A DNA stretch of 64,000 nucleotides from Ignavibacteriota bacterium. Its GTDB lineage: Bacteria; Bacteroidota; Ignavibacteria; Palsa-1295. Every line of letters starts with the position of its first letter. The first letter of the stretch is position 1. Location of the stretch: NCBI GenBank assembly GCA_963787835.1, contig CAWBEI010000006.1, positions 165,577 to 229,576 on the forward strand, written 5' to 3'. Under the pieces are notes generated by a model. It worked only from the letters and a program-made list of their open reading frames with translations. It was not told the DNA's origin and ran no database searches. Below, in pieces: positions 18,367 to 64,000 of this stretch. Made by a program: the position numbers and the translations under genes.

Positions 18367-18512
18367 GTCTTTTGAATGAAATTAATGGCGATCCATACCA
18401 ATTCTGACATGTTTCGTCGCGTAAACTCTTTGGAATTTATGAATTAAATACAAACCAAAAAGAGAGGCAAAAGTGCCCAGAGTTAATAAATGTGTAGCCA
18501 AGTCCAAACCGA

Positions 18513-20564
18513 TCAATTATGACGAATAACTCGCAGTGAACCCATTCCTTGAGCAGTTCTGAGAATGACCTGATATACCCCATCGGCATCCGGAAGTGTG
18601 AGTTCCATAGGAATATCCTTTTGCAAACCGGCAACGACCTCGCTCCGCTTCGCACCGAGCATATCGTAGATCTCTAAGGTCCCGTTGCTAATATCGGTTG
18701 AAGAAGAGACCCAAACATTTCCCGACGCCGGATTGGGCCATATCCGAAATAGCGGCGCTTGCCCTAAATGCAATAGATCTGAAAGAATTGTTATCCCACA
18801 CCCGGATAGCGTCGTGATGGTACTTGTGACGGGGGTGGGTGCGGAATACTCGCATACGGGAGCATTCAGAACCACTAAAGAATCAAACGTGGCGTGAGCG
18901 GCGGCAGCTGAATCGTTAAACACATTGAACATCGCGTAGCCCAGCAGTGAATCAGGCGCAGCTTTCAAAACCTGAAGCATGGAGCGACCGGGCCATTGCT
19001 CACCCGGAATATCCAACTTCACTCCCGAAGGGGAGAACGAGCCAAGATAATCTAGCGTAGCATCGTAATTCATGACAAAGTTGACGCTCTCCGGACTGAT
19101 GAGCCCATCCAGTGTGATCGGAACGGCAACCGTCCCACCGAGGGTATCCGTGTGTACGTCCTGCGTTAATAGCGTGAGTGTTCTGGATGTAGTGTTGACA
19201 AATCCTGTGAGTGCTACCGTATCGCTCGATCCATTACTAAGCTGGAGCACTAACTCCGCTTGTTGGCTCCCAAGCGTCAGCCCCTGCATGGTAACTAAAA
19301 CAGAATCTTTCGTAAGGCTAACAACACGATAATTCGCAGCATCCGTACCCGTGATGTTAGCCGCCGTCACAGACAAGGGCGAACATCCTCTCGTTGTGAA
19401 AACGACGGAGCGTGTCAGGCTATCGCAAGACACTGTATCACCGGCGAACAATGCTGCCGGTGAGGCAGAAAACCCAGATGGGAACTGGAGAGGAAATCCT
19501 CCGCTGTTCAGGGTTCGCCATACACTTCCATTTTCATCGAGCACAAGCACGATATTATCATTGATCGCCGCAATGCTTCGTGTGTCGTACACTTCATTTG
19601 GCCCGCCAATGTTCTTCCATGTCAGGCCAGAATCCGTGGAACGATCTACTCCTGCCCCACTACCGTTAACGGTTCCAGCATATAGCACGTTAGGGGTACT
19701 TGCCAAAGAGCCGTTGTAATAGTCAAGCGGCTGAGAACTAACAGTCTGCCACATCGAACCAGCATTGGTAGTCAAGTCAATTCGTCCTTCATTTCCACCC
19801 GATTGTGCACCTACATTTTCATTGATCAGATAGAGCCGTTGATCGTTGCAAGAATCCACAGTGAGGTTATAGGAATCGCCGTGATCATTGAGAACGGTTC
19901 GGTCGCCATTGAGAGCGTTCCAGGTTTGGCCAAGATCAGTAGAAGCATCGATCCAACCTTGAATTCCACCACCGAATCTTGATGATTCATTGATAGAAAA
20001 GACATAGATCGTTCTGTCAGAGGCTATCGCAAAGCACAGCGCACCGATCGATGCGGTGTTTGTAGTGTAAACACCATTCCACGTCGCACCTCCGTCATAG
20101 CTCGTGTAAAGAATGCTCGCGTCAGATTCTAAAGCATGAAGCACAGAGGAAGACCCATTAAAGGCTACCTGATCGTAGGTTGGCTGATTAAAACCGTTAC
20201 CACCTGGTTGAAAATTTTGCCAAGTCTGACCGGCATTTACCGTTAAGAATAGCCCATCATCAATCGTACCAACAAGTACATGCAGCGAATCATAGATGGC
20301 AATGTCCGTAATGCCTGAGTTAGCAGTAAACGAAACTGATTGCTTCCAGGTGATGCCAGAGTCATTCGACGAATAAAGCGAATACGTACCGGCCCATGCC
20401 ACTCCACCGTGAAAACGGATGGCGCCGATGTGTTGTTGCTCGGGAAGAACTAAATTCCGGGAAACCTCCCTCCACTGCGCGCGAACAGAGTGCGTAGTGA
20501 TTACAAGCGCGCATATAGCGATAGCAGATCTGCTTAAACTGAATATCCTCATGCCGTTTAGCAC
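18513..20564 (-). CDS. Secreted Asp-box beta-propeller protein, one Ig-like module, T9SS-type CTD (paralog 1)
   Basis: Signal peptide ending AQW, Asp-boxes, WPNPA...EIYDMLG...GVY. Confidence 0.88.
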   Translation of the reverse strand: MLNGMRIFSLSRSAIAICALVITTHSVRAQWREVSRNLVLPEQQHIGAIRFHGGVAWAGTYSLYSSNDSGITWKQSVSFTANSGITDIAIYDSLHVLVGTIDDGLFLTVNAGQTWQNFQPGGNGFNQPTYDQVAFNGSSSVLHALESDASILYTSYDGGATWNGVYTTNTASIGALCFAIASDRTIYVFSINESSRFGGGIQGWIDASTDLGQTWNALNGDRTVLNDHGDSYNLTVDSCNDQRLYLINENVGAQSGGNEGRIDLTTNAGSMWQTVSSQPLDYYNGSLASTPNVLYAGTVNGSGAGVDRSTDSGLTWKNIGGPNEVYDTRSIAAINDNIVLVLDENGSVWRTLNSGGFPLQFPSGFSASPAALFAGDTVSCDSLTRSVVFTTRGCSPLSVTAANITGTDAANYRVVSLTKDSVLVTMQGLTLGSQQAELVLQLSNGSSDTVALTGFVNTTSRTLTLLTQDVHTDTLGGTVAVPITLDGLISPESVNFVMNYDATLDYLGSFSPSGVKLDIPGEQWPGRSMLQVLKAAPDSLLGYAMFNVFNDSAAAAHATFDSLVVLNAPVCEYSAPTPVTSTITTLSGCGITILSDLLHLGQAPLFRIWPNPASGNVWVSSSTDISNGTLEIYDMLGAKRSEVVAGLQKDIPMELTLPDADGVYQVILRTAQGMGSLRVIRHN

Positions 20565-20565
20565 G

Positions 20566-22860
20566 TTAGTGGTCCAGCACGACGCGAAGCGAACGTGTTC
20601 CGTTGATAGAGGTTACCATGACGGTATAAACCCCACTTCTCGCAGGAAGTAACAACTCTTTCGGATTTTTTTTATCGATCTGGGTAGAAATAGCGCTTTG
20701 CCGAACACCAAGCATGTCGTAGATCTCGATCGTAGCATCACCAACATCCTGTGAGGAAGATAGCCAAACATTCCCATTTGTCGGATTTGGCGTAATACTG
20801 AACTCCGGGAGATCTCCTAAATGAATAGCGTTGGAGATGATGGGGACCGAACACCCGGAAAGCGTGGTCATTGAACTTGTGACTGGCAGCGGCGAGGAAT
20901 ACTCGCACGCAGAAGTAGAAGTCAAAACTATAACGGAATCGAAGGTGGCGTGGGAAGCAGCGTTGGAATCGTTAAACACATCGAAGTAGGCATACCCTGT
21001 CACCGTGTTTGGTAATGCGCCGATTATGGAAAGCACCGACCGTCCCGTAGATTGTTCGCCCGGAACATCCAATTTCGTGCCCGAAGGCGAAAATGATCCA
21101 ACATAGTTCACGGAACCATCATAACTGAGCAACATCTGAACATTTTCCTGCCGATCGAGACCATGAATGGTCAGTGGGATTGCGACCGTTCCCCCAAGCG
21201 TATCGGTTTGGGCATCTTGCGTCGAGAGGCTAAGCTGGAACAACGATGAGTTCACAAATCCCGCAAGATAAACGGTGTCAATGGCATCGTTATCCAAATA
21301 GAGAAGGAGTTGCGCGATTTGATTCCCTTGCTGAACACCATAGAGTGTTATTTCTATCGAATCCTTCGTGAGCTGACTTGCACGGAAGTTTAATGCATCC
21401 GGCCCCACGATTGCATAGGAAGAAACGGAGGGTGGCGTACACCCCGATCTTTTAAACACAACCGTGCGTGCAAGGCTATCGCATGCAATGGTGTCAGTCC
21501 GGAATGCAGTGTCAGGAATGACGCTGAGAACACTGGGCAAAAGGTTAACATATCCGGCAAGCGATACGGTGTCACTCGTTCCATTGTCCAGAGAGAACAC
21601 CAACTGGGCGCGTTGCTGACCCTGCCGAGAGGAAAGAAGCGTCACTGAGATGGAATCCTTCCTGAGATCGCTGACAGCATAGCTGGAGGCATCCGCGCCA
21701 ATAACAGACCATCCAGAGACAGAAGGTGGATCACAATTGCCTTTTTGGAATTGCACCGATCGAGTGATGCTATTGCAGGAGGCTGTATCGGAAGTGAATA
21801 GTGCAGCGGGCGAAACCGAAAACGAAGAAGGCAATGGAGGAATATTAAGAGAATCTCCTCCGCTATTGAATGTGGACCAAATGTTGCCCGCGGAGTCTAA
21901 GGCAAAAATGATATTATCGTTGATCGCAGCGAACTGCCGGCAATCGGCAGAACAACCAGAGCCGCCAATATTTATCCACGAGTTACCTTTATCGACCGAG
22001 CGGAGGATACCGTCGTTTAACGTTCCGACATAAAGCGCTTGGCCAGAATTCGAAATAGAGCCAACTAAATACGGGATCTGATGAGCAAAGGTAATCGTCC
22101 AGGTTTGCCCAGCGTCCGGCGTCATGTAAATCTTGGAATATCCATCCCCAGACCAGTGAAAATCCTCGTTGGAAACGTAGGCGCGGGATGCATCGCAGGA
22201 ATCGACATCGATGGAGTAAGAATCGGCATCGAAGGCCGGTGGTTGCGAGAACCATGTTGCGCCGGTATCATGGCTTACATCGAGATACGCACTGCCGACA
22301 CCTGGTGCGTTGCCGGGAGATGCATTGACGTAAATAGTTCCGTCTATCGCCTCCGCAAAGGTGATCGCGGCGGAGGCAGTCCCAAAATTCGACTGTTTCC
22401 AGGTTGCACCCTCGTCGGAAGAGATCAGAAAGGCCCCGCCATCGTCAACGGCATACAACACATTTGAATGACGCGCGAACGAGATGCGATAGAACCCTCT
22501 GCCGGAAATGCTACTCCATGTTTGCCCACGATCGTGCGTAATGAAGGTTCCATTCCACGTTGTTGACACTACCCCGGTATTTCGATCAAGGAAGGAGATA
22601 TCAAGGATCCCTCCGTAAGGAATATTCCCTGCGGTAAAGTTGGTGGTGTACCAATTTTTTCCGGTGTCCGGGCTGTAGATCAGGTCAGAGCCACCGGCCC
22701 AAATTATTCCATCTTTATACTCCATAGCTCCCCAGGAGTACCGAGGTACGACGACCGGAGCCAAAATGCGCCATTGCCCCCACGCACCCTCGGTTGCAAC
22801 CAAGAGCGCCAGAAGCGCAAACCACATCCGTTTACGAGAGCAAATGAGCATAACTTCCAA
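20566..22860 (-). CDS. Secreted Asp-box beta-propeller protein, two Ig-like modules, T9SS-type CTD (paralog 2)
   Basis: Same architecture; DSYSIDVDSCD, AINDNIIFALDS, TPNPT. Confidence 0.88.
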   Translation of the reverse strand: MEVMLICSRKRMWFALLALLVATEGAWGQWRILAPVVVPRYSWGAMEYKDGIIWAGGSDLIYSPDTGKNWYTTNFTAGNIPYGGILDISFLDRNTGVVSTTWNGTFITHDRGQTWSSISGRGFYRISFARHSNVLYAVDDGGAFLISSDEGATWKQSNFGTASAAITFAEAIDGTIYVNASPGNAPGVGSAYLDVSHDTGATWFSQPPAFDADSYSIDVDSCDASRAYVSNEDFHWSGDGYSKIYMTPDAGQTWTITFAHQIPYLVGSISNSGQALYVGTLNDGILRSVDKGNSWINIGGSGCSADCRQFAAINDNIIFALDSAGNIWSTFNSGGDSLNIPPLPSSFSVSPAALFTSDTASCNSITRSVQFQKGNCDPPSVSGWSVIGADASSYAVSDLRKDSISVTLLSSRQGQQRAQLVFSLDNGTSDTVSLAGYVNLLPSVLSVIPDTAFRTDTIACDSLARTVVFKRSGCTPPSVSSYAIVGPDALNFRASQLTKDSIEITLYGVQQGNQIAQLLLYLDNDAIDTVYLAGFVNSSLFQLSLSTQDAQTDTLGGTVAIPLTIHGLDRQENVQMLLSYDGSVNYVGSFSPSGTKLDVPGEQSTGRSVLSIIGALPNTVTGYAYFDVFNDSNAASHATFDSVIVLTSTSACEYSSPLPVTSSMTTLSGCSVPIISNAIHLGDLPEFSITPNPTNGNVWLSSSQDVGDATIEIYDMLGVRQSAISTQIDKKNPKELLLPARSGVYTVMVTSINGTRSLRVVLDH

Positions 22861-22923
22861 CGAGCAGAGCGAATGCCGAGTGGATCAAACACACATTTTG
22901 GGGGTCTTTTTTGCACAAGCACC

Positions 22924-25188
22924 TTAATGCCGCCGCACCACCCTCAACGAACAAATCCCAGAGGTAGTTTTCACCAAAATGGCATAGACACCATCCGCAT
23001 CCGGAAGCGTTTGCTCAACAGGTGTGTCTTTTTGAAAAGCGGCTGAACCCTCACTTCGTTTTACCCCGAGCATATCATATACTTCGATAGTGGCTGCACC
23101 AATGTCTTCGGATGAGGAAACCCAGACATTCCCATTCGCGGGATTAGGCATTACGCTGAATACAGGATCAACGCCGAAATGAATTAGCTGAGAGAGTATC
23201 GGAACAGCACAACCCGAAAGCGTGGTGATGGTACTTGTTGCTGGCTCAGGCATGGAATACTGGCACGATGAAACTTGTGTCAGCACGGTTACGGAATCGA
23301 ACGTAGCGTGAGCTGCTTCACTGGAATCGTTAAACACATTAAACTTAGCGTAGCCTAATGCTGCGCCGGATGTAGCACCCGTGATGGAAAGCTCCGACCG
23401 TCCCGGCCATTGCTGGCCGGGAACATCCAACAGCACACCCGATGGCGAGAACGAGCCGAGATAATCCACCGTACCATCGTAGTGCAAAATGAGATCGACA
23501 TTTTCCGCACGTTCGAGTCCGTTCAGCGTGATGGGAATCGAGACGGTTGCGCCGAGGGTGTCGGTTTGGACATTGGGGATAGAAAAAGCAAGTGGGCTAT
23601 GAAATAAGTTGACGTATCCGGTGAGTTGAATGGTATCGTTCGAGCCGTTATCAAGAGCGATAATCAAGTCAGCTTGCTCTTTGCCAATCTTATCGCCAGA
23701 AAATGTTAGCGTTATAGAATCGGGAAATAGATTGATCACTCTGAATGCTAATGAATCTTGGCCCACAATCACGTAGCTCCTAACTGACGGCGGAGAACAT
23801 CCACTTCTGATAAATGAAGCAGTCTGCATAAGACTATCGCATGAAATTGTATCGGAAGAAAACAGCGAGGCGGCCGAAAGGGTGAGATTATTAGGTTCAT
23901 TAATGACGTTGCCGGAAAGAGCTATCGTATCTATATAGCCATTGTCAATATACAAGAGTAATTGACCTTGTTTATTTCCATTGGTCTTCGAATAAAGAGT
24001 AACAGAAATTGAATCGTTTGAAAGATTACTTGCATTAAAGCTCGACGAGTCGGCACCAGTTATAGCCCAACCAGTAACATGTGGCAATGGGCAAGCAGTC
24101 GTATTAAATTGAACCGGTGCAGTTGCGCTATCGCATTGAATTGTTCCAAAGTTAAGCAGTGATACTGGATTCGAAGTAACTAACGAAATCGGGAAACCAC
24201 CGCTATTGAAGGTTGCCCATACGTTCCCATTAGAGTCGAGAGCGAAGATCACATTGTCATTGATAGCACATATCGATCTACTGTCAGCAACGTTCCCTGG
24301 GCCACCAATATTCTCCCATGTGAGTCCTCTATCGATCGAACGGATGATGCCGTCAGATCTCGTTGCTGCATATAGAGCGTGTGCTGCAGTCGAAAACGAG
24401 CTCGAAAGATAATCTAGTGGATGAGAAAATGTAGATTGCCATGACTCCCCTTGATTGGTGCTTCTGAATATTTTCGCGTAAGGGGTATTGACGTCACCAT
24501 AAACATTTTCCGATACAACATATAGCGTCGAGTCATTACACGAATCGATTCCAATTGAATAGCTATCATAATCAACAAATCCTGGCATTGTTTTGAACTT
24601 CACGCCAGAGTTATCTCCAATGATAGCACAAGAAGCATCCAAGTATGCAACAACACTTGATAATATTACGGCATGCCCGTCATCTGCGACTCCGAGGTCA
24701 GTGCCTGGAATTGAATCCATAACCTCCCATGAGATCCCTTTATCTCCCGACTCATAACAGTTTCGGAAGTTCACACCGTAAACCTTTGAAGGTGCTGCAT
24801 AGACAAGTTGATTAAAGCCCTGATTTATGGGAGTGCTCCAAGTTTTTCCACCGTCCGTTGTAGTACTAGTAAAAAGGTGTTGTGGAATGTTTGAGGAGAC
24901 TACTCCATCATTCTCATTTAGAAATGAAAGGGCTGTTATCTGTGTGTTTGGTAGATTAGTTGAGGTCCACGTTTTTCCTGAATCAGCACTGAATGAAAGA
25001 TTAGTGAAGCCTGCCCATAAAATTCCGTTCTTAAAAGTAAGAACCCCACCCGGACCTTGACCGACCTTAGCAGTATGTGGTGCAACCACATTCGGTGCCA
25101 CAATCCTCCATTGCCCCCGCACGCCGTCCGCTGCAACCGAGAGGAGCAACAAGGCGAACAACAACAGTTTTGGGGAGCAAAAACGCAT
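22924..25188 (-). CDS. Secreted Asp-box beta-propeller protein, T9SS-type CTD (paralog 3)
   Basis: Likely start MRFCSPK at 25188; GQW after the signal peptide; MPNPA. Confidence 0.88.
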   Translation of the reverse strand: MRFCSPKLLLFALLLLSVAADGVRGQWRIVAPNVVAPHTAKVGQGPGGVLTFKNGILWAGFTNLSFSADSGKTWTSTNLPNTQITALSFLNENDGVVSSNIPQHLFTSTTTDGGKTWSTPINQGFNQLVYAAPSKVYGVNFRNCYESGDKGISWEVMDSIPGTDLGVADDGHAVILSSVVAYLDASCAIIGDNSGVKFKTMPGFVDYDSYSIGIDSCNDSTLYVVSENVYGDVNTPYAKIFRSTNQGESWQSTFSHPLDYLSSSFSTAAHALYAATRSDGIIRSIDRGLTWENIGGPGNVADSRSICAINDNVIFALDSNGNVWATFNSGGFPISLVTSNPVSLLNFGTIQCDSATAPVQFNTTACPLPHVTGWAITGADSSSFNASNLSNDSISVTLYSKTNGNKQGQLLLYIDNGYIDTIALSGNVINEPNNLTLSAASLFSSDTISCDSLMQTASFIRSGCSPPSVRSYVIVGQDSLAFRVINLFPDSITLTFSGDKIGKEQADLIIALDNGSNDTIQLTGYVNLFHSPLAFSIPNVQTDTLGATVSIPITLNGLERAENVDLILHYDGTVDYLGSFSPSGVLLDVPGQQWPGRSELSITGATSGAALGYAKFNVFNDSSEAAHATFDSVTVLTQVSSCQYSMPEPATSTITTLSGCAVPILSQLIHFGVDPVFSVMPNPANGNVWVSSSEDIGAATIEVYDMLGVKRSEGSAAFQKDTPVEQTLPDADGVYAILVKTTSGICSLRVVRRH

Positions 25189-25279
25189 GTAGTTGCAACC
25201 CAAATCTTCCCACAAATATTCATTCAATTTTCATCGTGACCATCAGGCGCTTGCAGCGTATCTTTGCATGAGAGGTTGC

Positions 25280-27577
25280 TCAGTGTTTTTCCACCACGCG
25301 GAGAGAACTCATGCCAGCCGAAGTCTTCACCAAAATAGTATAGACTCCATCGGCATCCGGAAGCGTTTGCAGAAGTGGCTGATCTTTTTGTACGGTGGCC
25401 GACCGCTCGCTGCGCACTTCCCCAAGCATATCAAACACCTGGATCGTTGCGGCACCCAGATCGGAGCCAGAGGTGATCCAGATCGTGCCATTCGATGGAT
25501 TTGGCACAACTCTGAATAGTGGATCAACCCCGAAATGAATAAGTTGTGAAAGCATCGGAATTGCACAACCTGCAACGGTTGTGATCGTGCTGGTTACCGG
25601 TGCGGGCATAGAATACTCGCATGGCGCAATTTGTGTCAGGACATTGACCGAATCGAATGAGGCATGTGCGGCTTCATCTGAATCGTTAAAGACCGTGAAT
25701 TTTGCGTATCCCAATACCGAGTCCGGCATGGCACCATTTATCGCAAGCTCCGACCGTCCCGCCCACTGCTCGCCTTCCATATCCAACTGCACCCCGGATG
25801 GCGAGAACGATCCGAGATAAACCACCGTCCCGTCGTAATGCAGCACAAGATCGATATTCTCCGTACGTTCGAGTCCGTTGATCCTAATGGGAACTTCAAC
25901 CGTAGCGCCGAGCGTGTCGGTATGAACATTCGGGATAGAAAAAGCAAGCGGACTATGAAACAGGCTTACATATCCTGAAAGACTTACGGTATCGACGGAA
26001 CCATCACTAAGCGCAAGCAATAAATTCGCATGCTGATCTCCAAGGCGTGCTCCAAAGAAATTTACGCCCATCGAATTGTACGTAGAATAACTCACTCCGT
26101 AGGAGGCGGAGTCCTGCCCGACAAAGGAATGGCTTGATATTAATGGCGAGTTACAACCTGTTCGAGTAAATACGATGGTTCGAGTAATAGTACCGCACGA
26201 GATCGTGTCCGTCGAAAATAATGAGGCAGATGAAAGGCTTAGAGTATTCTGTTCAATGATAACTTGCCCGGAAAGCGTTACGGTATCGACCTCCCCATTA
26301 TCGACATACACTAATAGCTGCGCGTGCTTACCGCCCGCGGAGTTAGCATACAGTGTTACAGAGATCGAATTCTTAGAAAAATTGCTTCCCTTGAAGCTTG
26401 ATGAATCTTCACCTACGATCGACCACCCCATGGCATGCGCCTGAGCGCATCCGATCACGTTAAACTGGACTGTTCGGGTAAGGCTGTCGCAGTAAACTGT
26501 GTCCCGGTCAAAAAGGGAGTTCGGTGTGGTAGATAACGTGCCAGAGGATCGGATAGAATCGCCACCACTATTTAATGTAACCCAGACGGTACCATTCGAA
26601 TCGATCGCAAATACGACATTATCGTCAATGGCAACAATATCTCGAGAGTCCTGAAGGACGGATGGCCCTCCGATGCTTTTCCAGTTCGCGCCCTGGTCGG
26701 TCGAACGGTACACCCCCTGCGATGTACCAGCAATGGTACCGGCATAGATCGCTTTCGAGAAATTTGAAAGTGTTCCGGAAAAAAATGGAACGGGAATTGA
26801 CTGCTGGATCTGCCAGGAAACGCCTCCATCGGTGCTCATCATTATTTTCGAGAATCCATCGCCATCTTTACTATCCATCCATGCCCAATATTGCTCATCC
26901 GCCAAATAAAGTCTTTTCGAATCGCAAGAATCGACGGCAAGCGTCCAGGCATCGACGTCAACAGGAGTTTTTCGATCGACCCACGACAAGCCGAGGTCCG
27001 TCGAGACCTTGACCGATCCAATTTGAGTTCCCCAATCCCCGGATAGCAGATAGAGTGTCTTATCGGGCGCGACTGCAAAACTGAATGCCGAGCCGGGGTA
27101 GCTCAGGGTACATTGCCATGATGCACCTCCATTCTGGCTCAGATAAAAGCCGTCCCCCACCGCACCCAGCAATTCGGGCGACCCGAGGAACGACACTTTT
27201 GAAAACGATAAGCTTGATTTCAGTGCCCAGGTCTGCCCACCGTTTCTTGTAATATACAATCCCCCATCCGTTGCGATGGCACCGTCCAAGGGATCGATGA
27301 AAGTAATATCATAATATTTCGCAACCGGAGCATTCGAACTGCTGACCCAGGTTCTGCCTGTATCCGACGAAGACCACAGCGACACGGTTCCCATCCAGAG
27401 AATGCCATTCACAAAGCAGCTTGCCCCGCCAGTGCCGCTGTGATATGATGCTAATGCAGCGTTCGCCGTAGCCCGCCATTGCCCATTCGCACGCTCTGCC
27501 ATAATCGAGAGAAACAGCAGCGCTATCCACAACCATTTACGAGAGTAATTGACCATATTACGAGAGTAATTGACCAT
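25280..27577 (-). CDS. Secreted Asp-box beta-propeller protein, T9SS-type CTD (paralog 4)
   Basis: Same architecture; start region duplicated (MVNYSRN-MVNYSRK); VPNPS. Confidence 0.88.
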   Translation of the reverse strand: MVNYSRNMVNYSRKWLWIALLFLSIMAERANGQWRATANAALASYHSGTGGASCFVNGILWMGTVSLWSSSDTGRTWVSSSNAPVAKYYDITFIDPLDGAIATDGGLYITRNGGQTWALKSSLSFSKVSFLGSPELLGAVGDGFYLSQNGGASWQCTLSYPGSAFSFAVAPDKTLYLLSGDWGTQIGSVKVSTDLGLSWVDRKTPVDVDAWTLAVDSCDSKRLYLADEQYWAWMDSKDGDGFSKIMMSTDGGVSWQIQQSIPVPFFSGTLSNFSKAIYAGTIAGTSQGVYRSTDQGANWKSIGGPSVLQDSRDIVAIDDNVVFAIDSNGTVWVTLNSGGDSIRSSGTLSTTPNSLFDRDTVYCDSLTRTVQFNVIGCAQAHAMGWSIVGEDSSSFKGSNFSKNSISVTLYANSAGGKHAQLLVYVDNGEVDTVTLSGQVIIEQNTLSLSSASLFSTDTISCGTITRTIVFTRTGCNSPLISSHSFVGQDSASYGVSYSTYNSMGVNFFGARLGDQHANLLLALSDGSVDTVSLSGYVSLFHSPLAFSIPNVHTDTLGATVEVPIRINGLERTENIDLVLHYDGTVVYLGSFSPSGVQLDMEGEQWAGRSELAINGAMPDSVLGYAKFTVFNDSDEAAHASFDSVNVLTQIAPCEYSMPAPVTSTITTVAGCAIPMLSQLIHFGVDPLFRVVPNPSNGTIWITSGSDLGAATIQVFDMLGEVRSERSATVQKDQPLLQTLPDADGVYTILVKTSAGMSSLRVVEKH

Positions 27578-27578
27578 A
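27537..27578. repeat. Perfect 21-bp tandem duplication over a start codon
   Basis: ttacgagagtaattgaccata x2. Confidence 0.9.
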
Positions 27579-27756
27579 ACTTTGAAGATTAAGTTATAAT
27601 CTATACGGTTTGCTTCGATGAATTGTTCATGCGTTCAAGGGTAATTCTCAATACCCAATTTTTTAAGGAAGCAACAAGTATCTATTGGTGTTAACCGGGC
27701 GATACATTTCAGATTTCTTGCACCCTCCGATTTTTCGCCGTATATTGCTCGTGCTT

Positions 27757-44535: not shown

Positions 44536-45504
44536 TTACATCAACCTTCTTCTATCATTAATGCGTTCTCGCTCGAACAAACGCCTTTCATCCTCTGGTA
44601 GAAAGTATTGGTGATCGTTCCAGTATTTGAGATCAGCGAGTTCGAGAAGAGCTAACAATGCTCCATCCTCTCTCCAGCGGTCGTCAGGCAAACCCTGGAG
44701 CTTGAATGTTTCTAGTTCAATCCGTCTGAAGCCATTTTTCCATCGATTCCAATATTTATCAAGCTGCTCTTTGGAATCCACATAGTGAATCACGTTCTGA
44801 AGGAGAGATTGGATATCCGGCTCTTCAATTCGATCACGATCAGGAAATGCACAATTCAAAAGTTGCCTTAAACCCTGCGCGGTTAGCGTTGAGTCTTGTT
44901 TCTTCGGTAGGCTATTTATTAAAGTCTTCGAGTAATCGTCAAAGATTTCCAGAACGCTTGCGAGTCTGTAAAGTCGACGCTTATTATCGTCGTTAAGTGC
45001 GCCCTCCTTATATTCGGTTTTGTGCGATAGATTCGCCCATAAGTGTTCAGAAATAGATGTCACTTGGATTTCTCCGACAATATTCTTTAACATAGTAAGC
45101 TCTCCACGGGTCCATTCATCAGATAACTTCACATTGACGTGATACGCGCCGTATCCGAATGAGTTTATTTCATGCTGTTTTCTTTTATCCTCTTCCTCAA
45201 TTATGACGAGACCACTTGCTCGTATTGCTTCGAGTATGAGTGGCAAATCGGGACTATTATAATAGATTATTCGTACACCGCAAAGATCTTTAGTCTGTTG
45301 AAATGGATATACATAATTTTTTCTTTCTACTTTCGCCTTGAATGATTCGAAGCTTTTAATTCTACTAAAAACGCCTAAAGCGTCAATTCCCCGATGGTCA
45401 ATTATTGCACGGAGCAAAGTCTCAAGCCTACTCAGGAAAATAGTGTACCCATCGTAATGAGCATAGTATTCAGCGCGTAGATCACTAGTTCTTATTGGTC
45501 CCAT
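44536..45504 (-). CDS. RelA/SpoT-domain (small alarmone synthetase-like) protein with C-terminal extension
   Basis: RIKSFESFKAK, DLCGVRII, GYGAYH, EIQV....HLWANLSH; no hydrolase domain. Confidence 0.88.
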   Translation of the reverse strand: MGPIRTSDLRAEYYAHYDGYTIFLSRLETLLRAIIDHRGIDALGVFSRIKSFESFKAKVERKNYVYPFQQTKDLCGVRIIYYNSPDLPLILEAIRASGLVIIEEEDKRKQHEINSFGYGAYHVNVKLSDEWTRGELTMLKNIVGEIQVTSISEHLWANLSHKTEYKEGALNDDNKRRLYRLASVLEIFDDYSKTLINSLPKKQDSTLTAQGLRQLLNCAFPDRDRIEEPDIQSLLQNVIHYVDSKEQLDKYWNRWKNGFRRIELETFKLQGLPDDRWREDGALLALLELADLKYWNDHQYFLPEDERRLFERERINDRRRLM

Positions 45505-45552: not shown

Positions 45553-45615
45553 TCGCATTCTGCCAAAATCCCGAAACGATTCGGCTTCGCCGGGAAGCTG
45601 GATGTGCTGAATATC
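45553..45615 (-). repeat. Displaced duplicate of the 3' end of the NTF2-like gene
   Basis: Near-identical direct repeat of 46342-46404. Confidence 0.9.
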
Positions 45616-45627
45616 AACGATTAGTAA

Positions 45628-45915
45628 TTACTGTTGCAGCACCTGCAACGATCTTTTCGGCAGCGATTCCACGAGCGTCAGGAGCGCGGCGGCAGGGCCG
45701 TGCGGGCGGCGGCGACCCTGCTCCCAGTTCCGTACCGTTGCGACGGGCACGCGTATCATCAGCGCGAATTCATCCTGCGACTTCCCAAGCTTTCGCCGAA
45801 TTTCCTTCACGTGCATGGAATAATCGAATACTCGCGAGGGTTTCTGCGACCCTTTGAGAATTCGTCCGCCCTCTTTCACGCTCTCCAATAGTTCCTCGAA
45901 ATCCTGTTTCTTCAT
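45628..45915 (-). CDS. XRE HTH antitoxin (HigA/NadS-like)
   Basis: FEELLESVKE...SQDEFA...TVRNWEQGRRRP.GPA.ALL. Confidence 0.9.
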   Translation of the reverse strand: MKKQDFEELLESVKEGGRILKGSQKPSRVFDYSMHVKEIRRKLGKSQDEFALMIRVPVATVRNWEQGRRRPHGPAAALLTLVESLPKRSLQVLQQ

Positions 45916-46229
45916 GTGTATTCCTCGTCCACGATTTTTTTAAGTGCCTTTTTTTGTTGTTGCGTCAGTTGGTCTGTCGTCCCCTTGGGAAACACGTATA
46001 GCATCAAGATCTGCTCTCGGTGCGCTGCCCAAAAGTAAAGGATTCGTGCGCCTCCTCGTTTACCGTGTCCCTTAGCTGCAATTCGTACTTTTCGGAGACC
46101 GCCCGTTCCCGGTTCTTTCGGCCCGAGTGCCGGGTTGGCCACCAATTCGTTTTGAATGTTGCGATATTCGTCATCCGAAACAAGGGATGTTATCTGCCGC
46201 GTGAACACCGATGTTTCAACAATGACCAT
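45912..46229 (-). CDS. RelE/HigB-family toxin
   Basis: VETSVF, GTGGLRKVR, GKRGGARILY. Confidence 0.92.
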   Translation of the reverse strand: MVIVETSVFTRQITSLVSDDEYRNIQNELVANPALGPKEPGTGGLRKVRIAAKGHGKRGGARILYFWAAHREQILMLYVFPKGTTDQLTQQQKKALKKIVDEEYT

Positions 46230-46321
46230 ACTGCGCCAATGGCGTATAACTACTCCGAGCGATCAGCCGTTCCTTTCTGGATCCACAACGTTGCAATGAA
46301 CAGAAAATTATTCCTCACCGA

Positions 46322-46722
46322 TCATACCACAACCTCTGCCTTCGCACTCTGCCAAAACTCCCGAAACGATTCGGCTTCGCCGGAAGCTGGATGTGCTGAA
46401 TATCGCAGATCACATTATCCTTAAACCCGATCACCTCGTCGAAATGGTTCTCGTGCCAGCGGTCGCCAATACGCGTGGCATCGGTGTAGTGTATCTTGAA
46501 TACGCCGTCCTCCATACACTCCACGTGGGAGGAATATCTCACTTCATTGAACATTTTCTTGCCGAACAAATGGTTCTGCCGGTAAATATTGACAATGTTC
46601 TCGCGTCCGACATAATTTCCTTCCCAATAGTGGTACTCGCAGTCCTCCGCCATGAGCGGCAGGAGGTCATCGTATTTCGTTTGGTCAAGCAGTAATGCGA
46701 AGTTCTGTGCAATTTGAAGCAT
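46322..46722 (-). CDS. NTF2/SnoaL-like protein (1-nt frameshift near 46382)
   Basis: YDDLLPLMAEDCEY...YVGRENI. The duplicate copy has the extra G that restores LPGEAESFREFW...VV*. Confidence 0.75.
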
Positions 46723-46748: not shown

Positions 46749-47003
46749 TTACCGGTATGCCTCGCTCCGTTTTAGCACTGCGGCAACCTTAACTTCCTTT
46801 GTGGAATCGAAGATGAAGTAGAGAATCCTGTAATCTCCAACACGAATTCGCCATTTGTTCACATCGCCGTGAAGCTTTTTACATCCGGAAGGTCGGGGGT
46901 TGTCGGCGAGCGCACCCATCTTCTTGATCAATCGCTCAACGAGCGTTGCCGGAAGCTTCTCCATCTCCCTTCGCGCCTCGGACGACACATCCACGCGATA
47001 CAT
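46749..47003 (-). CDS. RelE/ParE-family toxin
   Basis: LADNPRPSGCKKL, WRIRVGDYRILY, RSEAYR. Confidence 0.93.
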   Translation of the reverse strand: MYRVDVSSEARREMEKLPATLVERLIKKMGALADNPRPSGCKKLHGDVNKWRIRVGDYRILYFIFDSTKEVKVAAVLKRSEAYR

Positions 47004-47004
47004 C

Positions 47005-47197
47005 TCAGGCTTTCAGTTTGCCGCGCTGAACGAGCTTTCGCTTTACCGTATCCAGCGACTCGAAGGAGCCTTTTAATCGCTACATCCATCAATTTTGAAT
47101 CGTGAAATTCTTCCCAGAGCTTCGCATATTTGCGAAGATCGATCATGACAGCTACACGCTTACCTCCGTCGTCTGTTACGTATTGAATTCCCTTCAT
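47005..47197 (-). CDS. Antitoxin for the downstream RelE (frameshift near 47065)
   Basis: MKGIQYVTDDGGKRVAVMIDL; alternate frame ends VKRKLVQRGKLKA* one nt before the toxin ATG. Confidence 0.75.
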
Positions 47198-47319: not shown

Positions 47320-47395
47320 GGGCGCTTAGTCTCAGCTGGTTTAGAGCGTCTCGTTTACACCGAGAAGGTCGGGGGTTCGAATCCCTCAGCGCCCA
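47320..47395 (+). tRNA. tRNA-Val(TAC), CCA not encoded; one extra T in the D-stem
   Basis: Acceptor gggcgct/agcgccc; anticodon arm tctcg-ttTACac-cgaga; T-arm ggggg-ttcgaat-ccctc. Confidence 0.93.
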
Positions 47396-47404
47396 CAGAA
47401 TCCA

Positions 47405-54816: not shown

Positions 54817-54927
54817 TTAAGCCGCCACTTTCGCCCCGTCCCGCGCCTCGATCCAATGGCGGATGTACTCCACAATAGCGGACATCGGCGCGCCGGGAGT
54901 GAAAAGCTGGCCCACGCCGATCTTTTT
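54817..54927 (-). repeat. Displaced duplicate of the last 37 codons of the B12-binding-domain gene
   Basis: 111-bp direct repeat of 55420-55530; 8 mismatches by manual count. Confidence 0.93.
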
Positions 54928-54937
54928 TTCGCAAAGG

Positions 54938-55147
54938 TTAGGCATAAACCAGTCGTCCCTTTGGCTGTGGAATTTCGCGGCCCAATTCTTTCGCGTAATC
55001 TATCCACTCTCGCATCACTGTTTCGACGTTCAGTAGTGTCTCAGAGTACGTTTTGCCATCAGCCATGCAGCCCGGAAGCTCTGGTACTTCCGCAATAAAG
55101 CGGTCGTCCTGCTCGCTCCAGTAAATAATTATTTCGTATCGATTCAT
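54938..55147 (-). CDS. hicB: HicB-family antitoxin
   Basis: YEIIIYWSEQD..FIAEVPELPGCMADG.T..E. Confidence 0.93.
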   Translation of the reverse strand: MNRYEIIIYWSEQDDRFIAEVPELPGCMADGKTYSETLLNVETVMREWIDYAKELGREIPQPKGRLVYA

Positions 55148-55395
55148 AACGTATCCGATAATTGATATTGCAAAATAATTTTGCGAACCTGCCGAACCTG
55201 ATAGGCTTTCGTCATCCCATTCTCCGGCTGCAAGTCGATGATCTCACGAATTCCTTCCCTTGAATAGAGGTGATGACTTCCACGAATTCGTTCTGAAAAT
55301 CCCATCGATATTAGCATCCCTGTCAGTTCATTGAACCGGATATTGTAATCGGAAGTGCCACGAAGTAAAATATCGAGAGTTTTGCGGGGATTCAT
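55144..55395 (-). CDS. hicA: HicA-family toxin
   Basis: NIRF.EL..L..GF.ERIRGSHH...QP....KAYQVRQV. Confidence 0.93.
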   Translation of the reverse strand: MNPRKTLDILLRGTSDYNIRFNELTGMLISMGFSERIRGSHHLYSREGIREIIDLQPENGMTKAYQVRQVRKIILQYQLSDTL

Positions 55396-55419: not shown

Positions 55420-55836
55420 TCACACCGCCACGTTCGCCCCATCTCGCGCCTCGATCCAATGGCGGATGTACTCCACAATCGCGGACATCGGCGCACCGGG
55501 AGTGAAAAGCTGGCCCACGCCGATCTTTTTCAGTTCCTCGATGTCTTCGTTGGACATAATGCCGCCGCCGGTGAGGAGCACATCGTCCAGGCCGCGCTCG
55601 CGCAGCAATTTCAGGACGCGCGGGAAGATCGTCATGTGCGCGCCGGAGAGCATGGAAATGCCAACGACATCCACGTCCTCCTGCAACGCGGCTTCCGCGA
55701 TCATTTCGGGCGTTTGGCGCAGACCGGTGTAGATCACTTCCATTCCCGCATCGCGCAGAGCTGCAGCAATAACTTTCGCGCCACGATCGTGGCCATCCAA
55801 TCCGGCTTTGGCAATAAGGACTCGTATTTTTCTCAA
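55420..55836 (-). CDS. Cobalamin-binding domain protein (methylmalonyl-CoA mutase small subunit type)
   Basis: [11 protein letters not shown] (DxHxxG), GLRQTPE, SMLSGAH, GGGI, FTPG. Confidence 0.93.
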
Positions 55837-57224: not shown

Positions 57225-58301
57225 ATGCAAACATTCGCCATTCGCCGTTCGCCATTCGCCACTCGCAATGTTCTTCTGTTGACGCTGGCTGCGTCGGCAA
57301 TCCTACTTGCACCAACGATCCTTTGGCCGTTCGATTACGATCAGGGAACGTTTGCTTACGGCGGATGGGCCATTCTTCATGGGCAACGACCCTACATTGA
57401 TTTTTGGGACATCAAACCGCCATATATCTTCTATACTTATGCCGCTGCATTTGCGATGTTCGGAAATAGCGTTCGAGCCATCCGCATTTTCGATTATCTG
57501 AATGCGCTCCTAACGATCGGATTGCTGTTCACTCTTGCAACGCGATTATGGAAAGACGCTCCCTGGCGAAATCTTGCTGCTGCGATGGCGTCGCTTGCAT
57601 TTGTAGTGCAATATTATATTTTCGGACATTGGGATACCGCACAAACGGAAACATACAGCCTGCCGCTACTAATTGGAGCAGAGCTGCTTGTAATTCAACG
57701 CAACGAATCAAAACTTTTATTGCGATCTGTTTGTGCAGGTGCATTGATCGGAATTGCATTCTACTTCAAATTTCCCAATGCTTTGTTTCTTGGATTGATC
57801 GCTGCGACGATTTGGCTTTTCACGGCAAAAGAAAGACGCATAAAATCTATCCTTTGGCTATGCGCCGGATTTATTTTTGCGATAGGATTAGAAAGCTTAT
57901 ATCTTGCCTTTAATGGCGAGCTGCTTCCACTCTGGCAGCTTACAACTTTGGAAACGGCATCGTATGTCTCGACTAATTATTCCGGCTCATTTGGATTTAT
58001 CCAGAATCTCCGAACGAGTTCTCAGGCTTTGGATATTTTGTGGATCTTTGTTGGAATACTTGGATGGAGTTATTGGGTCGTTTCCCGACGCCATGAAGAA
58101 AAAGACTCCACTGCGATACTTCGCTCTCTCATGCTCCTCATTCTCGGTTGTCTGATCGCGTTCATTGCGGTCCAATTGCAGAACAAAGGATACAAATATC
58201 ATTATGCTATTCTACTTCCATGGGCCGATCTTAGTATCGGAGCGGGATTTGTGCATGTCGTATTTGCAATTTCAAATTTCATTCGATTGCCGCGACGCTG
58301 A
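57225..58301 (+). CDS. GT-C (ArnT/PMT-like) glycosyltransferase, 3'-truncated at the composition junction
   Basis: DYDQG, PYIDFWDIKPP, AQTE, multiple TM helices; last codons lie in high-GC DNA. Confidence 0.8.
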   Translation: MQTFAIRRSPFATRNVLLLTLAASAILLAPTILWPFDYDQGTFAYGGWAILHGQRPYIDFWDIKPPYIFYTYAAAFAMFGNSVRAIRIFDYLNALLTIGLLFTLATRLWKDAPWRNLAAAMASLAFVVQYYIFGHWDTAQTETYSLPLLIGAELLVIQRNESKLLLRSVCAGALIGIAFYFKFPNALFLGLIAATIWLFTAKERRIKSILWLCAGFIFAIGLESLYLAFNGELLPLWQLTTLETASYVSTNYSGSFGFIQNLRTSSQALDILWIFVGILGWSYWVVSRRHEEKDSTAILRSLMLLILGCLIAFIAVQLQNKGYKYHYAILLPWADLSIGAGFVHVVFAISNFIRLPRR

Positions 58302-58773
58302 CCGCCGGAAACACCAAGCAGATGTAGTCCGCGGGCGTCAGCAGCGGACACGACGGCGAAGGTCCGGGACACGTGATGATCTCGTTCATGTCGAAGCTAC
58401 GCGATTGCGCGACCATCGTCGTGCCATCGGCTTCGAACAGGCGCAGATCGAGGTCGCCGCGATCGGGATCGTCGAACAGGATCGAGAGCGTCACGCTCGC
58501 GGTGTTGGCGGGAACGGTGAACTTGTAATAGTCCAGGTCGTCGGGCTGCCCCGAGCCGTTGGAGCAGATCGCCGCGGGACCGGTCGCTCCGGCGATCACC
58601 GGCGTCGCTTGCGCGGGAGTATCGTTGGGCTCGCCGAACGCGCACGCGGCTGCGGGGAACGGCCCGTCGATCGCCGCGTCTTTCGGGATCTGGCTGTTGT
58701 CGAAGTCGAGCGTCAGCGAGCAACCGGCCACCGCGAGCAGCGCGGTTGTCAGCACGGACGACTCCCGAATCAT
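58279..58773 (-). CDS. Myxobacterial-type lipoprotein with PPC-like domain, C-terminus probably cut at the junction
   Basis: MIRESSVLTTALLAVAG-C lipobox; EPNDT, DDLDYYKF, GDLDLRLF. Confidence 0.75.
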   Translation of the reverse strand: MIRESSVLTTALLAVAGCSLTLDFDNSQIPKDAAIDGPFPAAACAFGEPNDTPAQATPVIAGATGPAAICSNGSGQPDDLDYYKFTVPANTASVTLSILFDDPDRGDLDLRLFEADGTTMVAQSRSFDMNEIITCPGPSPSCPLLTPADYICLVFPAVSVAAIE

Positions 58774-58884
58774 GAGCCACGGTAACGGGCCGATGCGGAG
58801 AACGTCAAGAGATCTGAAGCACTTAGCTCCAGAGCCGCGCTTGACCGTCGAGTCGCCCGGCGCTAGGGTGCGCGCTCCCCGGCC

Positions 58885-59874
58885 ATGTACCTGCAAGACC
58901 TCATCTTCACGCTGCAGAAGTTCTGGGCGGATCGCGGCTGCGTGATCGAGCAACCCGTCGATGTCGAGGTCGGCGCGGGGACATTTCACCCGGCGACGTT
59001 CCTGCGCGTGCTCGGCCCCGAGCCGTGGAACGCGGCGTTCGCGCAGTTCTGCCGGCGACCGTCGGATGGTCGTTACGGCGACAACCCGAATCGCGCGGGC
59101 GCGTACTACCAGTTTCAAGTCGGCCTGAAGCCGTCGCCGCTCCACGTCCAGGACCTCTACCTCGATTCGCTGCGCGCGATCGGCCTCGATCCCGGCGCGC
59201 ACGACGTGCGCTTCGTCGAGGACGATTGGGAATCGCCGACGCTCGGCGCGTGGGGCCTCGGCTGGGAAGTGTGGTGCGATGGCATGGAGGTCACGCAGTT
59301 CACGTACTTCCAGCAAGCCGGCGGCATCGATCTGCTGCCGGTCACCGCCGAGCTGACCTACGGCGTCGAGCGGATCGCGATGTATCTGCAGGACGCGAAG
59401 AGCATGTTCGATCTCAAGTGGGACAAGAACGTGACCTACGGCCAGCTGCGGCACCCGTGGGAGGTCGAGTACTCGCGCTACCACTTCGAGGAGCTCGTCG
59501 CCGACAACGCGTTTCGCGCGTTCGACACGTACGAGGCCGAGTGCAAGCGCTTGCTCGAGCGTGGCCTCGTGCTTCCGGCGTACGAGTTCTGCATGAAGAG
59601 CAGCCATCAGTTCAACTCGCTCGACGCGCGCGGCGCGATCAGCGTGACCGAGCGCCAGCGCTTCATCGGGCGCGTGCGCGGGATGGCGCGTGCATGCGCG
59701 CACGCGTACGTCGGCGCGCGCGCCAAGCTCGAGTTTCCGCTGCTGCCGCCGCACCTGCGCGCGCAGGCGGTCGCCGCGTATCGCGGCGCGGAAGAAGCCG
59801 GCGTCAATGCGGGCGCGCTCGCCGCGGGTCGCGCGATCAGCGCGCACGCGCAGGAGATGGTCCATGCCGGCTGA
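58885..59874 (+). CDS. glyQ: Glycine--tRNA ligase alpha subunit
   Basis: [43 protein letters not shown]. Confidence 0.97.
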
Positions 59875-61938
59875 TCTGCTGTTCGAGATCGGCTGCGAGG
59901 AGATTCCGGCCAAGATGCTGACGCGCGCGCTCGTCGAGCTGCCCGCGCAGATCGAGGCCAAGCTCGCGGCCGCGCGGCTCGGCCATGCCGGCGTGCGCGT
60001 GCTCGGCACGCCGCGCCGGATCGCGCTGATCGTGAGCCAGCTCGCCGAGCGCCAACCGGATCTGCGCGACGAGGTCGTCGGTCCGCCGGTGTCCGCCGCG
60101 TTCGCGCCGGACGGCACGCTGACGAAGGCCGGGCAGGGGTTCGCCGCGAAGAACGGCGTCGACGCGGCCGCGATCGCGAAGAAAGAAGTCGCCGGCAAGA
60201 AGGGCCTGTACGCGGTCGCGACGCGCGAGGTCGCCGGGCAAGATACCCGCGCGCTGTTGCCGGCGCTGCTCGTCGAGCTCGCGACCGGCATCGCGTGGCC
60301 GAAGTCGATGCGCTGGGGCTGGGGCGAGACCGCGTTCGTGCGGCCGGTGCAGTGGCTCGTCGCGCTGCTGGGCGCCGAGGTCATCCCGGTACAATGGGCC
60401 GGGCACACCGCCGGGCGTCACAGCCGCGGTCATCGCTTTCTCGCGAACCACGCGGTGGAGATCTCGTCCGCGGTCGCGTACGAGGCCGCGCTGCACGCGG
60501 CGCACGTGATCGTCGATCCCGACGCGCGCAAGCAGACCGTCACCGACGAGCTCGCGCGGCTCGCGCAGCGCGATGGCCTGCGCGTGCGGCCCGACGACGC
60601 GCTGGTCGCCGAGGTCATCCACCTCGGCGAGTGGCCGGTCGGCGTCAGCGGCGCGTTCGATCCCAAATCGCTCGAAGTGCCCGAGGAGATGATCGTCACC
60701 GCGATGCGCAATCATCAGCGCTACTTCGCGATGGAGACGAGCGACGGCAGGCTCGCGCCGCGGTTCGCGACCGTGATGGCCACGATCGTGCAGATCCGGC
60801 GGTCGTCGCGCGCGGCAACGAGACCGTGCTCGCATCGCGGCTCGCGGATGCGCGGTTCTTCTTCGCGCAGGACTCCGCGAGTCATTCGTTCGATGCGTGG
60901 AACACCAAGCTCGACGCGGTCGTGTTCCAGGCGAAGCTCGGCGATGGCGCGAAGACGATCGGCGACAAGGTCCGCCGGCTCGTCGAGCTGGTGACGCACC
61001 TGACCCCGAGCGCGGTCGCGATTCGCGCGGCGCGGCTGTGCAAGGCGGATCTCGCGTCGCATGCGGTCGGCGAGTTTCCCGAGCTGCAGGGCACGATGGG
61101 CCGGCACTACGCGCGCGTATTCGGCGAGCCAGCGGCGGTCGGCGACGCGATCGAGCAACACTGGTGGCCGAAGGGCCAAGGCGCCGCGCTGCCGGCGAGC
61201 GAAGACGCCGCGTACGTCGGCGTCGCGGATCGCGTGGACACGTTGGTCGGATGCTTCGCGACCGGGCTTGTGCCCAGCGGCAACGCCGATCCGCTGGGCT
61301 TGCGCCGCTCCGCGCTCGGCGTGCTGGAAATCTTCCTGCGCTACGAGCAGCTGTTCCCGAGCCTGAAGCTCGTGCTCGACGCGGCCGAAAACGTCTACGC
61401 CGGTACGCCGGTCAAGCTGTCGCCCGACGCGCGCCAGCAGCTGTTCGACTTCATCCGCCAGCGCCTGCGCGGGTTCCTGATCGATGAAGAGGGCCTCGAC
61501 GCGACGGTCGTCGAGGTCGCGCTCGGCGCCGGCTTCGATAACCCGCACGACGCGCGCCGCCGCGCGAATGCGCTGTCGGTGTTGCCCGCGGACACGAAGG
61601 CCGTGTTCAAGCGCATCGGCAACATCCTCGACGAGGCGACCGCGAAGGGCTTCGGCACGCAGGCCGCGCCGGACGAGGGCAAGCTGGTCGCCGCGGTCGA
61701 GAAGCAGCTGCACGCCGCGCATCGCGCGAGCGCCGCGCGCATCGACAACCTGATCGCGGGCGAGCAGTACGCCGATGCGTTCGGCGTCCTCGCCGAGATC
61801 GGGCCGCAGCTCGCCGCGTTCTTCGACAAGGGCGGCGTGATGGTCATGGATCCGGACGCGTCGCTGCGCGAGAACCGGCTCGCGTTGCTGCGTGCGATTG
61901 ACGCGCCGTTCGCGAAGATCGGCGACTTCCGAAACTGA
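59864..61938 (+). CDS. glyS: Glycine--tRNA ligase beta subunit (frameshift near 60793)
   Basis: [27 protein letters not shown]; then [22 protein letters not shown]. Confidence 0.93.
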
Positions 61939-61954
61939 GCACGGGAGCATCCTC

Positions 61955-64000
<2,046 letters not shown>

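Follow-up and report, generated by a model that had tools for sequence, protein, structure and literature searches.

Toxin-antitoxin cassettes lie between host gene ends and displaced, allele-like copies of those ends in a genus of uncultured soil bacteria

Within the window, the whole 64-kb stretch of DNA analysed here, a toxin-antitoxin (TA) pair of the higBA type follows the 3' end of a SnoaL/NTF2-like gene and is itself followed by a second, displaced copy of that end (Table 1). Judged from its sequence, by which alone it is known here, the pair resembles the type II TA system HigBA-2 (5ja9, 5jaa) in its toxin-first order, RelE-family toxin, XRE antitoxin, overlapping genes and palindrome ahead of the start, and differs from HigBA-2 in lying outside an integron. 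The palindrome ahead of higB, which is common to the genome of the window (G000) and to the related genomes G006, G014 and G005, is likely the antitoxin operator; the sequence farther upstream differs among them. The conserved leader of the cassette reaches to about 46277. A scan for promoters and terminators gave no signal exceeding shuffles, and no mobility gene was found in or beside the insert.

Table 1. Features of the two cassette loci and their surroundings (positions in the window)
Feature	Position	Strand	Basis
tRNA-Val, behind which the variable spot lies	47320-47396		
ParE toxin gene belonging to a further TA pair; lies upstream within this variable spot	46749..47003	-	PF05016
Host gene, SnoaL/NTF2-like, 135 aa as assembled	46315..46722	-	homologues; no Pfam match of its own
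In-gene copy of host gene 3' end	46342..46404	-	alignment; genome copy count
Imperfect palindrome, 15 nt, just ahead of higB start	46232..46246		kept in relatives
HigB-2-like RelE-family toxin gene, 105 aa	45912..46229	-	PF06296; HigB-2 5ja9, E 4e-22 (best solved match)
HigA-2-like XRE antitoxin gene, 95 aa	45628..45915	-	HTH_3 PF01381; HigA-2 5jaa, E 2e-6
Displaced (orphan) copy of host gene end	45553..45624	-	alignment, relatives' alleles; higA side bridged by short-read contigs of runs X1, X3
RelA/SpoT-domain gene, further cassette	44536..45504	-	PF04607
B12-binding-domain host gene; last 111 nt (55420-55530) form the in-gene copy	55420..55836	-	PF02310
hicA-like (55144-55395) and hicB (54938-55147) cassette	54938..55395	-	PF15919 for hicB
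Displaced copy of B12 gene end, own stop included	54817..54927	-	alignment

The aligned copies, 45553-45615 and 46342-46404, agree in 61 of 64 columns (95.3% identity; one substitution and two one-base indels), which confirms the direct repeat of about 63 bp that the first-pass annotation had described around the RelE/HigB and XRE genes. This repeat (63-64 bp, 789 bp apart) has only these two copies in the 3.57-Mb genome, and its alignment score is 105, in a null where 5 of 2,975 random flank pairs reach 36; it is not a chance pair. The gap of 12 nt between the antitoxin stop (45628) and the aligned copy, and that of 10 nt in a second, hicAB case, were also as annotated. The 12-nt gap nevertheless holds for the aligned copy and not for the true start of the orphan, which lies 3 nt past the higA stop, since 45616-45624 comes from another allele: it matches the I-V-D allele of G004, G003, G020 and G012, while G008 has I-V-E and the resident gene I-C-D. 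At this one locus the alleles thus appear to form the reciprocal mosaic expected from a single crossover, with a donor allele at the start of the orphan and the recipient allele in the gene.

The distal copy in G000 ends at 45553, about 20 nt before the host stop codon, and the same copy in G006 and G014 continues through the stop. One base of a CCC run is missing from the in-gene copy; the distal copy has the full run, as do G002, G006, G009 and, in G014, the copy after higA. The missing base shifts the host C-terminus off the conserved P-G-E frame, and the fit of one short-read contig (X1 record 6) ends exactly at 46382. Because the homologues and the orphan keep the P-G-E frame and the X1 contig misfits there, the missing base is probably a sequence error, in which case 46322-46324 would be the probable true stop of the host gene.

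Read evidence came from assembled contigs of four runs of one study. The higA-to-copy junction is spanned by contigs of runs X1 and X3, of which X1 may be the source sample, and is also present in G006 and G014. Therefore, the higBA junction is not an assembly artefact, and the lack of read support against which the first-pass annotation had warned did not appear. No head-to-tail joint for higBA was seen among these contigs, which leave the gene-side junction (46329-46381) without cover.

Relatives hold this locus in several states. A homologue of the host gene in G004, 53% identical, has a weak SnoaL_2 match (E 1e-4), and in G003, G004 and G012 the whole SnoaL gene stands ahead of rplO with neither copy nor TA pair, as an empty site. 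The whole host gene has no match in G002, G006, G009 and G014, where its 3' fragment is retained: G002 and G009 have a single copy of the gene end without this higBA, and in G006 and G014 the fragment comes after higA and runs through its stop. In G000 and G002 the fragment is cut about 20 nt earlier and joined to the RelA/SpoT-domain gene, which is 98% identical between the two genomes and stands in G002 behind the single gene-end copy, with no higBA.

The hicAB case behind the B12-binding gene is real and is common to G002, with hicAB 97% identical. Its orphan ends in TAA and the gene in TGA, and six of the eight differences between the copies are silent. The hicA-like gene has no Pfam match itself; a homologue in G012, 52% identical, matches PF07927. 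Every copy of the B12 gene end differs from most others directly past the stop. In one X1 contig, position 55495 is joined head to tail to 54893, 603 bases back, which is what a tandem copy or an excised circle of hicAB would produce; 35 letters are identical on both sides, the depth is about 4 and an assembly-graph shortcut fits equally, and the joint was set aside as evidence of a circle.

We then asked how often gene ends are duplicated in this way across G000. Genes were called by our own codon-model script (3,058 genes; crude for small genes), and the last 120 nt of every gene of at least 200 nt was aligned to the next 2 kb. Of 2,927 ends, 43 gave a match. We discarded 24 of them because the match lay inside a gene on the same strand and 2 because they had more than three copies; displaced copies within 2 kb thus remain for 17 of the 2,927 gene 3' ends. 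Mid-gene segments gave 1 of 2,224 (p 0.001), 5' ends searched downstream 0 of 2,927 (p 1.5e-5) and 5' ends searched upstream 5 of 2,912. The search missed one real case, an ABC permease with hicAB, because a paralogue scored higher. The labelled hosts include purB, prs, holA, a DEAD helicase, msrB, a Rieske protein, a fadL-like gene, DUF58 and an epimerase.

Among 144 small same-strand gene pairs, 115 were scanned and 53 labelled as TA-type, with the 29 unscanned pairs counted as non-TA. Gene-end duplications enclose 8 of these 53 TA pairs, and the remaining 9 events are spread over some 2,870 other gene ends (odds ratio 57, p 1e-10). The duplications are thus far from equally common around non-TA genes. 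Of the nine other events, two also involve TA genes or fragments, and 7 of the 17 overall carry other or unlabelled cargo. The general route of TA spread proposed by the first-pass annotation is therefore upheld as to the strong enrichment for TA pairs, but it is not specific to them. If any flanking repeat is counted, REP-like ones included, 16 of 53 TA pairs are flanked and 5 of 87 other small pairs. Because 37 of the 53 TA pairs have no flanking repeat, the gene-end scar marks at most one route for TA pairs, or it erodes. Several repeats beside TA pairs in G000 are REP-like and occur in 6-71 copies; they were kept out of the gene-end count. In its 3.57 Mb, this genome contains at least 53 TA-type pairs, as well as several families of multi-copy hairpin repeats of that copy range, some of them beside DUF559 nuclease genes.

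In the genus, over 20 unrelated host genes have cassettes enclosed by the gene end and a copy of it, some 37-111 nt long, that usually ends at or near the stop. Repeats flank 7 of 28 ParE loci of this genus (30 returned, 2 too near a contig end; gene ends 4 by script and 4 by eye, 3 in common) and 0 of 29 glyoxalase loci; related genomes and loci are kin, not independent, and the genus counts are descriptive. In other families of the phylum, 8 of 28 ParE loci, a small sample of the best-scoring ones, are repeat-flanked, two of them flagged automatically; by eye, none of these eight has a gene-end copy, the repeats being attC-like, REP-like or simple. For the family outside the genus, an orphan groEL-end copy occurs in one of the 18 genomes with a groEL match (G020; 20 searched). 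No boundary motif shared across host genes was visible by eye at the repeat starts of 42 repeat pairs, a feature for which the earlier annotation had proposed a test. That the scar exceeds chance, as also claimed there, is borne out by its recurrence through genome and genus and by the near-zero controls. The pattern is real, general in this genus of uncultured soil bacteria, and enriched for but not restricted to TA pairs.

More importantly, the two copies of a gene end do not look like an original and its debris. In 13 G000 pairs (the higBA pair was left out for too few differences and the epimerase pair for poor alignment), 71 differences are silent and 44 change an amino acid, that is, 62% are silent. 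Had an exact duplicate arisen and its orphan decayed neutrally, 36-47% would be expected to be silent, for transition biases of 1 to 8 (p 3e-8 to 8e-4). Across 23 pairs including relatives, pN/pS is 0.25, and in 8 of the 23 the stop lies at the same position with a different codon. Because the differences are mostly at silent sites, the gene-end copies behave, as far as their sequences tell, as two once-functional alleles and not as a gene with a decayed duplicate.

Comparison with sister genomes indicates which end is the older. Past the G000 orphan of fadL lies the sequence that comes after the gene in G002, and past copy 1 of purB in G002 lies the sequence that comes after the gene in G000. 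As the orphan carries the post-gene flank of the sister genome, the old end has been displaced and the new cassette adjoins the gene. Together with the two alleles and their silent differences, this displacement of the old end with its own downstream flank is the signature of the gene-end replacement that had been suggested for the higBA and hicAB loci. At the mazEF site, the next conserved gene comes directly after the stop in G002, G006 and G009, which are empty. Moreover, between G000 and G002, G006 or G014 the core genes secY and glnA are 83-85% and 89% identical, while higBA is 95% identical to that of G006 and 92% to that of G014, and the B12 anchor gene is 94% identical to those of G002 and G006 beside a neighbouring thiolase at 87%. 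Because the cassettes and the B12 anchor exceed the core genes in identity, cassettes and anchors likely cross species lines within the genus.

The cassettes, units of 0.3-1.7 kb, also form arrays, which reach three cassettes behind groEL and purB and whose cargo is mostly of TA families. Three orphan groEL ends occur in each of G013, G005 and G009 and a single one in each of G001, G003 and G006, with short ones in G002 and G014; the cargo there consists of BrnT/CopG, DUF2283 and HicAB pairs and a few unlabelled genes. There are two purB copies in G002 and three in G009, two B12 copies in G002 and two msrB copies in G005, where higA itself serves as a host gene. The same hicAB family occurs at groEL, nuoL, the B12 gene and the ABC permease, so new joints at both ends must have been needed at some time.

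The start points of the copies differ in behaviour from site to site. They vary at three of the five sites compared across genomes, namely purB (51-71 nt to the stop), the DEAD-helicase gene (51-70 nt) and msrB. At groEL, the genus has 13 orphan copies, of which 12 have starts no more than 2 nt from a single position, and at the B12 gene two different cassettes start 2 nt apart, the start being near-fixed in two of three cassette types. Most groEL copies are preceded by Ala-stop and about 7 nt ending in CG, letters that are not the host's, and copy 3 of G009 has kept an earlier antitoxin-end remnant behind an unrelated gene. On these two grounds, our reading is that the fixed groEL start may be one old joint, passed on as cargo was exchanged through short matches; the outcome would look the same with a site-specific enzyme.

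One cassette at the DEAD-helicase gene is common to four genomes, with orphans of 51-65 nt, and there the stop of the inverted cargo lies about 8-11 nt from the host stop. Because inverted cargo is equally tight at its stop, the gap of 10-12 nt after the cargo stop looks like the result of deletion trimming. In G009 (L167:779-3585), a DEAD-helicase 3' part of at least 150 nt is duplicated around a 723-aa gene, ahead of two short-copy cassettes; this long duplication is possibly an untrimmed early stage.

For the layout, the enrichment, the allelic copies, the identity pattern and the array order described above, we consider it fairly probable that DNA from a relative, comprising a gene end and a cassette, circularises and integrates by one homologous crossover that swaps the gene end, that deletion trims the joint, and that the repeat-flanked cassettes then spread and stack. 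In this account, the incoming gene end and cassette would close into a circle, and a single crossover in the host gene end, presumably catalysed by RecA, would leave the gene whole and push its old end behind the cassette. The new joint of cassette end to gene interior would form rarely, through end-joining of the incoming fragment or a one-sided illegitimate joint. Deletion may then remove non-functional DNA up to the last cargo stop codon, where trimming would halt because damage to the antitoxin gene would either be lethal or leave the cassette disarmed. Once flanked, a cassette would need only a gene end as its target and could loop out, re-enter and stack, with newcomers coming to lie next to the gene, and its cargo could be swapped at an inherited joint via short matches at stop codons. 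TA pairs would be enriched likely because addiction retains them once they are in. As to a possible route of uptake, ComEC is present in G000; it is near-universal and weak evidence. For RecA, a homology of 40-110 nt at 80-95% identity is short, which counts against explanation by a single crossover, and the fixed groEL start and the B12 starts 2 nt apart count against it as well, because random joints should vary. A precedent is given in passages of an E. coli study, where partly degraded incoming DNA was re-circularised and integrated by a single crossover, with a gene-end duplication of 109-950 bp, at a frequency 10 times that of homology-facilitated illegitimate recombination (HFIR; PMC3240628).

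The fixed groEL start and the near-fixed B12 start would be explained more readily if the cassettes were CIME-like relics of integrase islands which sat at gene 3' ends and carried a replacement end, or products of a recombinase acting in trans, eroded to a TA pair and accreted in tandem. Published passages describe for integrase islands the same geometry of a restored gene and a displaced fragment (PMC4383910), tandem accretion with CIMEs (PMC5704250) and the erosion of islands to TA-only islets (PMC13617665), and silent differences are expected under this explanation as well. We nevertheless regard such a site-specific origin as unlikely: the targets are more than 20 unrelated genes, among them accessory genes and the antitoxin gene higA (G005), the starts vary at the three sites named above and share no common motif by eye, and no integrase-bearing intermediate was found. 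Four G000 recombinase queries had no match in 86 loci (389 kb) around cassettes, a search that distant enzymes could escape. G000 itself has three tyrosine recombinase genes (XerD, XerC-like and another one), none of them closer than 23 kb to a case. An origin by long target duplication, as for restriction-modification (RM) genes, would have a free cassette joined at both ends during break repair, with an exact copy of the target; gene-sparing insertions would survive, and later exchange or conversion would lend the copies their allelic look. The shared hicAB family at four hosts fits this explanation, as do the TA-flanking repeats that are intergenic or lie past a stop (119 bp in G004, 198 bp in G003 and about 190 bp, three times, in G014) and copies within one genome that share variants absent from a sister, as the B12 copies of G000 do relative to G002. 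The TA toxins of these families are presumably RNases and not DNA cutters, which counts against insertion of the RM type. The repeat length and the absence of mobility genes also fit what passages on RM genes report (PMC2853133). The silent excess lies above the exact-duplication null, although allele exchange after an exact duplication could also yield it; different stop codons stand at the same position, similarity ends at the stop, and the higBA orphan starts with a foreign allele. On balance we find an exact target duplication quite improbable.

Chance, dispersed repeats or assembly error can hardly be credited as the source of the pattern. Several TA-flanking repeats in G000 are indeed REP-like, and the assembly contains indels relative to the short-read contigs and a likely chimeric end, but the higBA repeat is unique in the genome, its junction recurs in two other genomes and in short-read contigs, and the controls are near zero. 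An RNA or retro route was rejected because cargo and host gene point in opposite directions at msrB, fadL, DUF58 and in the purB array of G009.

The architecture of the cassette sites is close to that left by known processes. RM genes lie between unique direct repeats of more than 30 bp and variable length, which often span a start or stop, as passages of Furuta, Abe and Kobayashi (2010; PMC2853133) describe; the word "toxin" is absent from the main text of that paper. The two systems are alike in that selfish addiction genes stand alone between variable repeats of this length with no mobility gene, that relatives have the empty site, and that the repeats are often at a start or stop, the RM cases being mostly in competent species. 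They differ in cargo, which here consists of TA pairs and small genes and not of DNA-cutting enzymes, and in that the copies here are diverged alleles with a silent bias that end at the stop, with stacked arrays and at least 17 sites in one genome. An insertion with long target duplication was reportedly described earlier in H. pylori, by Nobusato et al. in 2000. With the integrase islands of Islander (PMC4383910) and with CIMEs (Guedon et al., PMC5704250), as parts of these sources present them, the cassettes share a restored gene and a displaced 3' fragment in the same orientation, and with CIME accretion they share tandem arrays, a newcomer next to the gene and the existence of integrase-less members; here, however, no site has an integrase or an integrase-bearing relative, the targets are unrelated protein-coding genes and the units are of 0.3-1.7 kb. 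For T6SS effector-immunity arrays, HFIR has been proposed, and in the passages concerned these arrays resemble ours in their repeated events and in having the newest module next to the anchor (PMC5361080). There and in the E. coli assay (PMC3240628), one-sided homology in a shared gene imports foreign DNA, and integration by single crossover leaves part of the gene end, of variable length, in two copies; these are a laboratory plasmid assay and one dedicated type of locus, and true HFIR deletes and does not duplicate, whereas the present cases are natural, genome-wide and anchored by 37-111 nt in housekeeping genes.

Integrons have IntI and arrays of attC cassettes that are rich in TA pairs. 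The cassettes described here are likewise rows of one or two genes, many of them TA, with a repeat after each and the newest first. They differ in that the repeats are host coding sequence and not attC hairpins (judged by translation, which gives host gene C-termini), that the cassettes can be inverted, and that they bring their own promoter region. No integron integrase was found in G000, whose recombinases score 128, 72 and 59 against the integron model TIGR02249 (cut-off 265). In other families of the phylum, ParE genes are flanked by repeats resembling integron attC sites (L266, L273, L274); attC-like arrays there and the integrase-less arrays of G000 are possibly alternative ways to build TA arrays. 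Going further, we tentatively entertain the idea, which is as yet more doubtful than not, that the cassettes are an integrase-free counterpart of the integron. The last 70 or so bases of almost any gene would then be a portable attachment site, and an addictive cassette with a trailing copy would propagate itself, looping out, re-entering relatives and stacking by host recombination alone, as a main source of "bare" chromosomal TA islets in this lineage.

The acquisition of TA pairs that stand alone between core genes, without a mobility gene, was called poorly characterised in a 2026 study (PMC13617665), which invokes Tn3 or integrase relics and two-sided recombination at flanking core genes; the passages concerned do not mention gene-end copies. 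In the literature searched, mostly open-access main texts, no description of the gene-end layout for TA pairs was found. The first-pass annotation had called the route possibly undescribed, which stands for TA pairs but is tempered by its closeness to RM long duplication, CIME accretion and E. coli re-circularisation. The layout adds a third footprint for bare TA islets, present at about one in six labelled TA pairs of one genome, and this footprint is dated by allele differences, repeated at more than 20 host genes and visible as growing arrays. An orphan gene-end copy within 2 kb is a simple criterion for genome-wide searches. Essential genes (groEL, purB, holA, prs) likely have C-terminal codons exchanged as a by-product of selfish-gene traffic, and the cassette layout likely shows selfish genes entering chromosomes via ordinary recombination.

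Several further observations were made along the way. At L034:1408-1810 (G000 C5:66908-67310), a lone GIY-YIG nuclease gene has a tRNA-like sequence on one side and, on the other, an identical 56-bp copy of the 3' part of that sequence, a layout like that of the gene-end cassettes with a tRNA-like host. Possible mirror cases are G000 C6:36264-36691 and C2:1764338-1765112, where small genes, DUF2283 in one case, are enclosed by duplicates of the 5' end of a gene and of the DNA upstream of it. Between its cassettes, G014 has three copies of a unit of some 190 bp (L058:5900-8060; also L056 and L057), which is absent from the window; on the opposite strand, we read it as a short His/Cys-containing ORF followed by a hairpin and a T run, resembling an attenuator leader. 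In the window, the antitoxin ahead of parE (46928-47197) differs in frame from G002 and G006, likely through an indel error or decay, and at position 50585 one base is absent in X1 and X2 short-read contigs, likely a further indel error. At 58283, within a gene, the GC content rises abruptly from about 49% to 70% and remains at that level up to the contig end, so that 58283-64000 is likely DNA of another organism joined to the contig. Finally, positions 18500-27600 hold four tandem paralogous genes, about 2.05-2.36 kb apart and 60-80% identical.
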